From positions 1 to 16,094 of the IMG/VR virus record IMGVR_UViG_2778261454_000010: a DNA stretch of 16,094 nucleotides, one strand, 5' to 3'. A model generated the notes under the pieces. The model saw nothing but the letters and a program-made list of their open reading frames with translations, did not search any database and was not told where the DNA came from. The stretch comes from a virus. Lineage: Duplodnaviria > Heunggongvirae > Uroviricota > Caudoviricetes. The translations under genes were made by a program, and so were the position numbers. Below are positions 715 through 3,015 of the stretch, one piece after another. Positions within the stretch are counted from its first letter, which is position 1, and each line of letters opens with the position of its first letter.

Positions 715-997
715 CTACAACGTCGGCCACTGGCTCGGCGTTAACTACCGGTGCTGGCGGGGCGGTGTATAGCGGCAAACCTTGCCCACCGCCTGAGAAT
801 TGGTTATGTCCGTTATATTCAATTTCGTCACCGTGAGCACATACCCACGCCACAGGCTCGGCGTCCATTGCCGCCAGCGCGATACGGAAAACCTGAGCCG
901 TCATGCTGTTTTCTGAGTGCTCATCGTGAGCCGGGTCAGTGAGAAAGCCCGTGATGAATACTCGAAGCTCATGCTCTTTTGTGATTGGGGTTGTCAT
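569..997 (-). CDS. Hypothetical protein; the first ~95 residues look protein-like, the C-terminal ~45 residues are read out of frame across the integrase 5' region
   Basis: Six-frame ORF whose 3' portion (569-714) overlaps the integrase frame in a different phase and translates to a Cys/Arg/Gln-rich tail (..RTCDRAACQGCFKRRLQGSATCWRGS..). The start overlaps the stop of the upstream HNH gene (994-997). Confidence 0.3.
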   Translation of the reverse strand: MTTPITKEHELRVFITGFLTDPAHDEHSENSMTAQVFRIALAAMDAEPVAWVCAHGDEIEYNGHNQFSGGGQGLPLYTAPPAPVVNAEPVADVVAWHKEGEERTCDRAACQGCFKRRLQGSATCWRGSTRLQSGISCQKSCC

Positions 998-1701
998 ATT
1001 TTACCGTTCTCCAGTTTTTCTCCCTCGCCAAAAAAATCTCCGTGATACTTTCTCCTAGCTTCCATAGAAACAAGGCCTGCAAGCTCAATATCATCGTACA
1101 ATCCAAGGGATAGCTTCCTGCCATCAACGCCGATTGTTACGTACCATTTGGAAAACTTTTTATGCCAACTAACACCTTTAATTCCGCTAGTGTTGTGTGA
1201 ATGAACCTTCTGGTTTCTTGCGTTGTCTGCCCTACTTGCGTTTCTCAGGTTTATCCATCTGTCATCATTTCTTACTCTATTGATATGATCCGCTTCTGTA
1301 GGGAATTTCCCGGGCATATACAGAAATGCAAGCCTTCCTGCTTTATATTCCTTACCATTAATTTTTATATGCCTATATCCAGTGTGATGAATGCACCCAG
1401 CGATATCTCCACACTTAAAACCTCCCTTTGTATTTTTAATCCGAGTAAATACACCTGTATCTGGGTTGTAATGCAGATGCTCTTTCAAGACGTCCTGAGT
1501 TACCAGCGCCAGCACGTTGGCTGGCGTCGCTTCATCGTGAAATGAGTTAAGCGCCGTTATGTCCGCATCAAGCTGGGTGCCTTCAGCGAGTGAGATATCG
1601 AAAAGATCGCCCTCTGGCATCACGCTCAGACGCTCATACGCTCCCGTCGCGTTCAGCGCCGCCGCTTTCATACGCTGCGCCAGTTCTGTTGTCATGCTCA
1701 T
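994..1701 (-). CDS. HNH endonuclease (HNH_3-like motif) with a C-terminal AP2-like DNA-binding segment; phage homing-endonuclease-like
   Basis: ATG at 1699-1701 is preceded by GGGAGG and overlaps the TGA of the upstream 69-aa gene (ATGA). The translation carries ..GYRHIKINGKEYKAGRLAFLY..EADHINRVRNDDRWINLRNASRADNARNQ.. (HNH-type) and ..GIKGVSWHKKFSKWYVTIGVDGRKLSLGLYDDIELA.. (AP2-like). Confidence 0.75.
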   Translation of the reverse strand: MSMTTELAQRMKAAALNATGAYERLSVMPEGDLFDISLAEGTQLDADITALNSFHDEATPANVLALVTQDVLKEHLHYNPDTGVFTRIKNTKGGFKCGDIAGCIHHTGYRHIKINGKEYKAGRLAFLYMPGKFPTEADHINRVRNDDRWINLRNASRADNARNQKVHSHNTSGIKGVSWHKKFSKWYVTIGVDGRKLSLGLYDDIELAGLVSMEARRKYHGDFFGEGEKLENGKI

Positions 1702-1907
1702 GCTGCCTCCCAGCAAATCTGAGTTTTATAGACGCTCTTAACGCGTTGCACTTTTCCGGCAACTTCAAGCTTCTTCAGTCTGCGCAATACGTATGCGGTA
1801 TCGAGAGGTCGGTAGTTATCTCGAAGCCAGTTCGTCACTACGTAGGTCATGCAGCGACCATGCTCATTCAGCACCTGAATGATTTCTTCATCGGTTGGCT
1901 TGTTCAT
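1698..1907 (-). CDS. Small hypothetical protein, 69 aa (possible winged-helix DNA-binding fold, inferred)
   Basis: ATG at 1905-1907 is preceded by CGAGGAG with an 8-nt spacer, directly after the methyltransferase TAA. Its stop overlaps the HNH gene start. The sequence (..MTYVVTNWLRDNYRPLDTAYVLRRLKKLEVAGKVQR..) looks helical and basic. Confidence 0.5.
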   Translation of the reverse strand: MNKPTDEEIIQVLNEHGRCMTYVVTNWLRDNYRPLDTAYVLRRLKKLEVAGKVQRVKSVYKTQICWEAA

Positions 1908-1922
1908 GCTGCTCGCTCCTCG

Positions 1923-2660
1923 TTATTCACCATCACACAGCATGGAGAATGCTGCCGCTGCCACTCTTGGAACTTGTCCATTGCCAAGGGCTTTAATTCT
2001 GTCCACCCGATGGGCCACCCCATGAACCACTCGACCCATTCCGGGTTCAACTGTCCATCCTGGGGTGGCTGCGACCCATCTGGAAGTGGACGCATCTTTA
2101 TTGCACTTGGCAAGTCCGGAGTTCTGCGTAAGCGCTCGCTTGGACAATCGCCCCGTATTGTTGCTTTCGCTGTAGGCCACAATCCACATCCTGTCTCTTT
2201 CATGGGGCGCTCCGCAGTTCGATGCTGAAATACGAAACCACTCACAGCCACACCCCATTTCGGCAAGGTTACCAATGACCACTGCAAGGCCTTTTCCTCT
2301 GAGTCGCGGCGAATTTTCCACGCAGACGAATGCAGGTCGTACCTCACTGACGATTCTCGCCATTTCTGCCCACAGTCCAGAACGGCGTCCATTGATGCCG
2401 GCACCATGACCATTTGCGCTAATGTCCTGGCATGGAAACCCGCCAGATATGACATCAACAATCCCTCTCCACGGCTTTCCGTCAAAACTGCACACGTCAG
2501 ACCAAATCGGGAAAGGGCGGAGAATTCCATCGTTTTGTCGTTGCGCGAGAACTTGTGCTGCGTAGGCATCACGTTCAACTGCGCATACTGTTCGCCAGCC
2601 AAGGAGATGCCCTCCGAGTATTCCTCCGCCAGCGCCTGCGAAAAGAGCCAACTCATTCAC
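1923..2660 (-). CDS. DNA (cytosine-5)-methyltransferase, small phage-type enzyme of about 245 aa
   Basis: GTG start at 2658-2660 with GGAGGT five nt upstream, overlapping the TGA of the upstream ORF. Motifs read in order: I ..ELALFAGAGGGILGG.., IV ..GGFPCQDIS.., VI ..FVCVENSP.., VIII ..GAPHERDRMWIVA.., X-like ..RIKALGNGQVPRVAAAAF... Stop TAA at 1923-1925. Confidence 0.85.
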   Translation of the reverse strand: MNELALFAGAGGGILGGHLLGWRTVCAVERDAYAAQVLAQRQNDGILRPFPIWSDVCSFDGKPWRGIVDVISGGFPCQDISANGHGAGINGRRSGLWAEMARIVSEVRPAFVCVENSPRLRGKGLAVVIGNLAEMGCGCEWFRISASNCGAPHERDRMWIVAYSESNNTGRLSKRALTQNSGLAKCNKDASTSRWVAATPGWTVEPGMGRVVHGVAHRVDRIKALGNGQVPRVAAAAFSMLCDGE

Positions 2661-3015
2661 CGTTACCTCCGCGCAGCTGCCTTGCCAGATATTCAAGAGC
2701 CATTGCCGGAACGCCGACATGTCCTGTGCACGCAAATTTCGTGAGCAAATGCTCAATGGCTTTATCAACACCCCGCGCCTCAGCTTCTCGCAGGATGCTG
2801 TCTGTTGCCGGAGTTTCATGACAGGCACACAGCAATTCATGAATTGTCTGCATATCGACAATATCGCCGTCCGGCTGCTGTGTTAAATTCCACCGCTTAT
2901 AAATCTGGACTGACTCATCAGCCAGTAATATCGCCGCCGACTTAATCGCCAAATTCTCAGCCACCAAAGCCTTCAAATGCTCCTGCAACTCCACACCCTG
3001 TGGACAGTTCGTCAC
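2653..3015 (-). CDS. Hypothetical phage early-region protein, probably 5'-truncated at the 3060-3075 junction
   Basis: The frame is open upstream to 3072 with no ATG; the annotated start is GTG at 3013-3015. The TGA stop overlaps the methyltransferase start. No recognisable motif. Confidence 0.4.
   Translation of the reverse strand: MTNCPQGVELQEHLKALVAENLAIKSAAILLADESVQIYKRWNLTQQPDGDIVDMQTIHELLCACHETPATDSILREAEARGVDKAIEHLLTKFACTGHVGVPAMALEYLARQLRGGNGE

Follow-up and report, generated by a model that had tools for sequence, protein, structure and literature searches.

The window analysed in this study, the whole stretch of 16,094 nucleotides from IMG/VR virus record IMGVR_UViG_2778261454_000010 (Caudoviricetes), is part of an enterobacterial lambdoid prophage and carries a gene for a DNA (cytosine-5) methyltransferase on its minus strand. 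A preliminary description, made from the letters alone, had pointed to a second open reading frame (ORF) overlapping this gene in another phase. In this study, we found that both ORFs, the methyltransferase frame (main frame, alpha; 1923-2660) and the alternative frame (beta; 1904-2656), are selected for, that the selected frame switches along the gene, and that the start architecture is conserved. The reading that we favour, with a probability of about 0.72, is that both subunits of a two-subunit DNA (cytosine-5) methyltransferase are encoded here, by a single stretch of DNA in two frames. Alpha would be the catalytic large domain, consisting of motifs I-VIII and, after a junk linker, motif X. 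The first ~150 residues of beta would be overprinted on the catalytic motifs and would be followed by a variable region with WPT(P) units and by a motif-IX-like helix, LNPEWVEWFMGWPIGWT. The two chains would be made from adjacent starts on one message, behind one Shine-Dalgarno sequence, and would assemble after translation. Beta would then contribute motif IX and the small domain for DNA recognition, like the beta chain of M.EcoHK31I.

The two frames were compared across relatives in two samples. The first was seeded with alternative-frame peptides and comprised 160 loci from genomes and viral contigs, 144 of which were distinct. The alternative and main proteins both matched over their full length in 160/160 loci, with the alternative frame always +1 of the main frame, and both ORFs were open over 230-370 codons in nearly all of the 144 distinct loci. 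Since this sample was biased to intact alternative frames, a second one was seeded by the main frame only (GFPCQDI and similar patterns), which gave 76 distinct loci with 51-89% main-frame identity. Both ORFs were kept in 72 of these; the main frame alone was kept in one and the alternative frame alone in two, and the last was cut by a contig end. The hosts included Enterobacteria, Pseudomonas, Acinetobacter, Betaproteobacteria, Desulfobacterota, Verrucomicrobiota, Planctomycetota and Saccharibacteria, and cultured phages were also represented. The checks suggested in the preliminary description included the frame of the W-P-T and LNPEW..GWP..GWT peptides in relatives, which was always the alternative frame and never the main one, and interruption of the alternative frame, which was found in neither close nor distant relatives. 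A prophage of E. coli PCP07014 (locus L002, 2523-3284) carries a pseudogene in which both frames are stopped near codon 120 (main ..LLV*IGL.., alternative ..LFE*DLQ..).

The features of the locus are as follows.

1923-2660, minus strand: alpha ORF of 245 codons (245 aa) from a GTG, in the main frame, C5 DNA methyltransferase catalytic subunit by its match to Pfam PF00145.
1904-2656, minus strand: beta ORF of 250 codons from an ATG, in the alternative frame (+1 to alpha), which would encode the recognition and motif IX subunit.
2653-2670, minus strand: shared initiation region seen in the sequence, with GGAGG at 2670-2666, the alpha GTG at 2660-2658 and the beta ATG at 2656-2654.
2653-2655, minus strand: TGA stop of the upstream 120-aa gene, forming an ATGA with the beta ATG (2656-2653) in the sequence.
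2622-2642, minus strand: alpha motif I, FAGAGGG, also read in the beta frame.
2427-2441, minus strand: alpha motif IV, GFPCQ, also read in the beta frame.
2307-2318, minus strand: alpha motif VI, ENSP, also read in the beta frame.
2184-2204, minus strand: alpha motif VIII, HERDRMW, also read in the beta frame.
2171-2185, minus strand: beta G-L-W-P-T, the first WPT(P) unit, over the tail of alpha motif VIII (..RMWIVAY).
2063-2161, minus strand: variable (putative target-recognition) region, under purifying selection in the beta frame only; alpha is here an open, unconserved linker.
2000-2050, minus strand: motif-IX-like block, beta L203-T219, LNPEWVEWFMGWPIGWT, over alpha ..EPGMGRVVHGVAHRVD.
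1968-2000, minus strand: alpha R220-P230, RIKALGNGQVP, candidate motif X block, over the beta tail ELKPLAMDKFQEW.
1904-1907, minus strand: ATGA formed by the beta stop TGA (1906-1904) and the ATG (1907-1905) of the downstream 69-aa gene.

Beta has a length similar to that of alpha, starting 4 nt after the alpha start and ending 19 nt past the alpha stop. Over the alpha motif stretch 2184-2642, the beta frame reads MSWLFSQAL.., ..AGFHARTLAQ... What the preliminary description had reported from the letters was borne out: the ORF 1904-2656 encodes 250 aa on the minus strand, +1 to the main frame; the quoted peptides ..GLWPTAKATIRGDCPSERLRRTPDLPSAIK.. and ..GQLNPEWVEWFMGWPIGWTELKPL.. are present in it; a W-P-T stretch (G158-L-W-P-T, from 2185) lies at the end of motif VIII, over HERDRMW; and its TGA shares bases with the ATG of the 69-aa gene.

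Stop codons in the alternative frame were counted against synonymous codon shuffles of the main frame, in which the methyltransferase protein and its codon usage were kept. The +1 frame of 34 representatives with <70% main-frame identity contained 0 internal stops against 162 expected (the 15 observed stops were all ORF-terminal), and the +2 frame contained 575. For the window gene, ~4 alternative-frame stops were expected, and 0.3% of the shuffles were stop-free. In 80 flanking control ORFs, 970 stops were observed against 1000 expected, and one of the 80 had no +1 stop; this agreement shows that the stop test is calibrated. At the protein level, the alternative frame was conserved above the shuffle null, with a pair identity of 0.427 against 0.254 in main-guided codon alignments, and it exceeded the null in every 15-column window (z 5-62), the N-terminal third included. 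The most conserved part of beta was the LNPEW..GWT block (LNPEWVEWFMGWPIGWT), in which the pair identity of 0.80 exceeded both the null (0.29, z=62) and the value for the main frame (0.66).

In the reverse test, alternative-frame synonymous shuffles were used. The main frame was conserved beyond the shadow of the alternative frame in motifs I-VIII, at z 21-52, and in motif X, at z 22-31, and it was unconserved in the variable middle (z -0.8 to 4). It nevertheless stayed open there: 23 stops were counted, and 280 were expected. Variability by codon position was measured in 477 pairs at 80-97% nucleotide identity. The most variable position was main position 3 over alternative codons 1-150 (0.187 differences per site) and alternative position 3 in the variable middle (0.48 differences per site); all positions were low in the IX/X block (0.05-0.15 differences per site). 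Over the first 150 codons, the main wobble was ~2.6 times less variable than the alternative wobble in the middle, as would be expected if coding in the alternative frame restrains the main wobble. Substitutions between the window and 15 close, indel-free relatives were then divided into those that are alternative-synonymous and main-nonsynonymous and those that are alternative-nonsynonymous and main-synonymous. Their numbers were 205 and 27, respectively, in 2063-2161, 135 and 487 in the first 150 codons, and 68 and 58 in the IX/X block. These results indicate that 2063-2161 is coded in the alternative frame, that the main frame dominates the coding of the catalytic region, on which a weaker second constraint also acts, and that coding in the IX/X block is genuinely dual. 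Constraint acts on both frames over the first 150 codons and is stronger on the methyltransferase frame.

The start sites were also conserved, with the motif (A/G/T)TG-A-ATG-AG(C/T)-TGG. The beta start was ATG in 139 of 144 loci and was preceded by an in-frame TGA. The alpha start, the position of which was set by homologues, was ATG, GTG or TTG and lay 4 bases upstream of the beta start in 120/136 loci. The Shine-Dalgarno core mostly ended 8-9 nt before the beta ATG, and hence 4-5 nt before the alpha start. An internal beta start at M151 (ATG 2206-2204, with GGAG upstream) was considered and rejected, because this Met is not conserved and is Ile in most relatives. Since M151 is unconserved and the 5' ATG is conserved, translation of beta appears to start at its own 5' ATG, which adjoins the alpha start and lies behind the shared ribosome-binding site.

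These data bear on the explanation that the alternative ORF is untranslated and that its openness comes from codon usage, nucleotide constraint or a decayed ancestral frameshift. The main-frame motifs do dictate part of the alternative frame (GGFPCQ gives GFPAK or GFHAR, and WIVA gives GLWP), and gene callers readily call spurious ORFs. However, the shuffles still gave ~5 stops per gene and a much lower alternative-frame identity, and the controls calibrate the test. The substitutions in the middle region are those of a gene coded in the alternative and not the main frame, the ATG and its Shine-Dalgarno spacing are conserved, and insertions in the variable region add WPTP units in the alternative frame. 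We therefore consider an untranslated ORF extremely improbable. Stop avoidance, frame-specific purifying selection and the conserved ATG with its Shine-Dalgarno sequence rule out two possibilities raised in the preliminary description, namely a chance resemblance and an ancestral frameshifted relic. Its view that the frame is mostly noise upstream of the last ~90 codons did not hold, as the first 157 alternative codons are conserved across the family. Dual coding, which it had proposed for the target-recognition region, is strongly supported, and its extent is the whole gene rather than those ~90 codons.

The main frame by itself resembles an incomplete methyltransferase. Alpha matched Pfam PF00145 with E=6e-31 over profile positions 5-180 of 324 only, which correspond to motifs I-VIII, and it matched TIGR00675 with E=9e-22, which is below the curated cutoff of that model. 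A family profile built from 34 homologues aligned residues 16-178 of M.HhaI at E=2e-19 and nothing beyond. Motifs I, IV, VI and VIII (FAGAGGG, GFPCQ, ENSP and HERDR) occur in order. The exact alpha protein is present in NCBI as EFH8448820.1, 'DNA cytosine methyltransferase [Escherichia coli]', and phrog_363, 'DNA methyltransferase', spans alpha residues 3-239. As had been described, the main frame is intact up to a motif-X-like end; it stays open and finishes with ..RIKALGNGQVPRVAAAAF... In the C-terminal block ..RVDRIKALGNGQVP.., G225, N226 and Q228 were invariant among the 34 alpha sequences, and GNGQVP sits where the motif X GNSV stands in M.HhaI (PDB 10mh, 1mht). Neither Pfam nor the HhaI comparison aligned this block; position and pattern, rather than significant profile scores, point to its identity as motif X.

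The segment between motifs VIII and X of alpha is ~40 aa long in the window, and its length varies among relatives. Neither a conserved target-recognition region nor motif IX was found in it, as the linker conservation equals the null and the PF00145 coverage stops at 180/324. The small domain and motif IX of the monomeric C5 methyltransferases (PF00145) are not in the catalytic frame, and no single frame yields a full-length PF00145 match. In relatives, the alpha linkers are of low complexity with recurring (V/L/M)A(D/N)(A/T) motifs, because these are the -1 frame shadow of the beta WPTP units (TGG CCN ACN CCN read as nTG GCC NAC NCC). This shadow therefore explains the odd spacers of many annotated short phage C5 methyltransferases.

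An insertion of an HNH endonuclease ORF (third frame, ..CECCG..HH..N..CVWCH..) was observed inside the motif IX/X overlap in loci L247 (689-2335), L248 (1519-3024) and L249 (305-1810), with proteins P0289 and P0263. The insertion has a length of 1 mod 3 and is followed by a partial duplicate of the beta tail. In these variants alpha stops at ..EPDVGGTSDGLA*, after motif VIII and the linker, and it is the beta frame in which motif X (..RVDRLRALGNGQVP..) is read.

The missing parts of alpha could also be joined by recoding, an option that the preliminary description had left standing. The ribosome would read the main frame up to motif VIII, shift +1 into the alternative frame and shift -1 back for motif X, to give a single chain. 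The pieces read in this manner do give the canonical order of motifs I-VIII, variable region, IX and X, and a single shift would be enough in the HNH-insertion variants. In the window, however, two shifts are needed. No slippery or stall site was seen by eye at either junction, where no systematic scan was run, and the motif X junction of relatives consists of codons of the type CGC GTC GAC CGC CTC AAG. Past motif VIII, the main frame meets no stop and is kept open through its unconserved linker (the 23 stops against 280 noted above). The alternative frame has an ATG of its own with a Shine-Dalgarno sequence, 157 codons upstream of the supposed shift site, and from there on it is both open and conserved. 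The openness and constraint of both frames in these regions are not needed by a single-chain model. A hand-built chimera (alpha I-VIII, beta recognition region and IX, alpha X) was searched against Pfam, and its coverage did not go past profile position 161; sequence profiles therefore give a frameshifted single chain no support. We regard frameshifting as very unlikely. Under the two-subunit reading, the HNH-insertion variants (two metagenomic loci) fit the assembly of separate chains, though the copies could be dead; with alpha lacking motif X, their enzyme would be active only if the chains assemble.

The alternative-frame protein was then characterised. The exact beta protein is found in NCBI as DAV62403.1, a 'hypothetical protein' from a Caudoviricetes assembly. 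A single-sequence search gave 2268 full-length homologues and a profile of diverged members gave at least 7191, none of them with a Pfam domain. An exhaustive HMMER search over 1.84 billion 50%-identity representatives gave 30,879 cluster representatives at E<=1e-3, 16,351 at E<=1e-10 and 3,643 at E<=1e-30. Of the profile searches that had been suggested for each frame, the one with the main frame led to PF00145, and the one with beta of the window found no match in Pfam or NCBIfam. In PHROGs, beta matched phrog_1008, 'DNA methyltransferase', at 4e-14 (window) and 1e-28 (a distant member), and it also matched small families of ~70 aa that are limited to its C-terminal block. A PDB sequence search with the beta profile gave nothing below E=0.7.

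Three parts can be distinguished in beta. The first is a conserved N-terminal part with MSWLFSQAL.., KF.RNDK, SRFGLT, W.T..C.. and LP.WG..R.G. The second consists of WPTP.A.D units in variable number, into which the length differences among relatives fall; insertions there bring recognisable WPTP units in the alternative frame. The third is the block G.LNP.WVEWLMGWP.GWT.L.PL..D.F..W...H. In the beta alignments, G158 and T162 of the first WPT(P) unit were invariant or nearly so. Predicted beta-specific tryptic peptides include FGLTCAVLTESR, YDLHSSAWK, TPDLPSAIK and FQEWQR.

Among the matches listed, the ten longest beta members (392-548 aa) had no Pfam domain, and so no in-frame fusion to PF00145. 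The two longest of the ten that also carry motif X are the HNH-insertion variants. In P0010 and P0058 (430-432 aa) and at locus L084 (alternative ORF of 430 codons), the beta frame runs on without a stop, and in frame, into the downstream gene for a Dam-type adenine methylase (PF05869), and the two are called as one beta-Dam fusion ORF; 37 sequences belong to the P0010 cluster. An adenine methylase is instead found directly upstream of the alpha/beta pair in Salmonella phage S9-5.

We next asked whether the C-terminal block of beta corresponds to motif IX, a resemblance that had been proposed in the preliminary description. An hhalign comparison of the family with M.HhaI, the sequence of which was confirmed to be exact against PDB, gave a single alignment, placing beta 202-218 on HhaI 273-289 (KLHPRECARVMGYPDSY, motif IX) with E=0.57. 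The pattern L.P.{5}[LVIMF][MQ]G[FYW]P..[FYW], which was written after viewing both sequences, occurred in 182/246 loci, with 0.004 matches expected by chance. All but one of 183 pattern matches were beta-family blocks, and the remaining one was a canonical methyltransferase in the flank. Since the alpha motif X block begins on the last base of the beta block (position 2000), position also favours motif IX. The assignment of the beta block to motif IX would thus rest on position and pattern. The proposed resemblance stands as the sole and best HhaI alignment with a very specific pattern, and it falls short of significance by profile methods.

Beta may instead be a real translated protein with its own function, such as a regulator, an anti-defence protein or a DNA-binding protein, which is overprinted on the gene without being an enzyme subunit. 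The same selection evidence would apply to such a protein. Profile comparisons link beta to no part of a C5 methyltransferase at a significant level, nothing in known methyltransferases corresponds to its N-terminal half, and AlphaFold predicts a beta-sheet module of unknown fold. However, alpha would then be left without a recognition domain and motif IX, and yet it is strongly conserved. The best conserved block of beta lies at the place of motif IX, directly before motif X, and fits the pattern. The two ORFs occur together over the 220 loci examined, save for the main frame alone in 1/76 and the alternative frame alone in 2/76, and there is the precedent of M.EcoHK31I. An independent function of beta is therefore unlikely in our judgement.

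Several points weigh against a two-subunit enzyme. That beta is translated, that it binds alpha and that it is needed for methylation are what we infer, and the database entries for beta are gene-caller output, which is no proof of expression. The homology of the beta block to motif IX is consistent with the alignment, though at E=0.57 it is not statistically significant and is not established. Searches of 118 beta family sequences against Pfam gave scattered chance matches only and no PF00145, and the chimera described above did not extend the Pfam coverage. AlphaFold models of beta alone had low global confidence, with a pLDDT of 57 for an alignment of 118 sequences and 64 for a more diverse set, and with pTM of 0.24 and 0.30, respectively. 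In favour of the two-subunit reading, local confidence was moderate, with a beta-sheet at 101-144 (pLDDT ~80) and helices at 60-73 and 205-212. A Foldseek search of the beta model against PDB gave no match at E<=0.001. The 487 alternative-nonsynonymous changes show that the constraint on N-terminal beta is weak within the clade of the window, and the first 150 beta codons may be just a translated leader. Finally, in M.EcoHK31I the recognition domain is reportedly in alpha, whereas the variable region of the window is conserved only in beta.

A two-subunit reading has precedents among known systems. M.EcoHK31I (Lee, Kam & Shaw 1995, pmid 7870574) is, by the accounts in PMC2836561 and PMC3404938, a two-chain C5 methyltransferase whose alpha chain carries motifs I-VIII, X and the recognition domain and whose beta chain is encoded entirely inside the alpha gene. 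Both chains are required, and N-terminal deletions of beta weaken association and not catalysis, according to the same papers. The locus of the window resembles this system, as far as it is described there, in having, within the alpha gene, a second ORF in a different frame, here maintained by selection, and in having an alpha with motifs I-VIII and a candidate motif X; motif IX is absent from alpha and would be on beta. It would differ from the described M.EcoHK31I in that the overlap is the whole gene and not a beta nested in alpha, in that the variable region is conserved only in beta, and in that the enzyme is an orphan prophage methyltransferase; the likeness is one of described architecture. 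M.AquI (Karreman & de Waard 1990; Pinarbasi et al. 2002) is described in PMC3404938 as having motifs I-VIII on alpha, and a portion of the variable region, IX and X on beta. It is similar, on that account, as a naturally split C5 methyltransferase with the variable region at least partly on the second chain together with motif IX. In contrast to the window, where motif X is on alpha, M.AquI has it on beta, a distribution found only in loci L247 and L248. In lambda Rz/Rz1, the short Rz1 ORF is embedded in Rz and the products form one complex, according to PMC11445585 and PMC9409062. Rz/Rz1 is likewise a same-strand second frame inside a phage gene, of which gene callers often miss one; in the window, by comparison with that description, dual coding takes in the whole gene, ~245 codons, and one frame is an ancient enzyme fold. 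Our literature searches yielded no description of family-wide overlap beyond M.EcoHK31I and M.AquI.

A broader form of the reading can be put forward only tentatively, at somewhat less than even odds. Whole-gene, same-strand dual coding of ~245 shared codons would extend across many bacterial phyla and phages (~31,000 50%-identity clusters), the recognition subunit having been overprinted on the catalytic domain, with its N-terminal ~150 residues now a folded part. If this is true, tens of thousands of 'hypothetical proteins' would be methyltransferase beta subunits, and each alpha annotated alone would be an incomplete enzyme. For evolutionary studies, the hundreds of diverged loci are a large natural data set on two proteins that share ~245 codons and in which the dominant frame switches cleanly. 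In terms of mechanism, two starts 4 nt apart behind one Shine-Dalgarno sequence would be a simple route to two subunits per message. If the enzyme has two subunits, a native-sequence clone of the annotated alpha would work by accident, and beta would be lost from a codon-optimised synthetic alpha, which should be inactive. This has a bearing on methylome studies, on the assignment of methyltransferase specificity (REBASE-style) and on phage engineering to evade restriction.

The annotation of the locus in databases was also inspected. In the phage and E. coli records examined, one frame or the other was called and never both as a pair, so that the alpha/beta pair is systematically half-annotated in these records; the beta family has no Pfam model. 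Half-annotated pairs were observed in Pseudomonas phage phPA-G (locus L164, 1501-2229), phage Shamal (L165, 1501-2187) and Klebsiella phage BUCT711 (L163, 1662-2177). The deposited calls in these three were either beta alone, as a 'hypothetical protein' with no methyltransferase annotated, or a 5'-truncated alpha alone.

The methyltransferase gene of the window is an orphan in that no restriction enzyme is adjacent to it. The upstream 120-aa gene (2653-3015, minus strand) matched phrog_492 (7e-12) and is coupled to the beta frame via the ATGA at its stop. The downstream 69-aa gene (1698-1907, minus strand) matched phrog_9799 (8e-37), gave a weak winged-helix hint in Pfam (E ~0.02), and is likewise coupled to the beta frame via an ATGA overlap. 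Downstream of it lies a 240-aa ORF (994-1716, minus strand), the start of which overlaps the end of the 69-aa gene. The C-terminal half of this ORF reads ..HINRVRNDDRWINLR..NARN..SGIKGVSWHK..KWYV.., which by eye resembles an HNH and AP2-type DNA-binding arrangement, and the protein may be homing-endonuclease-like.

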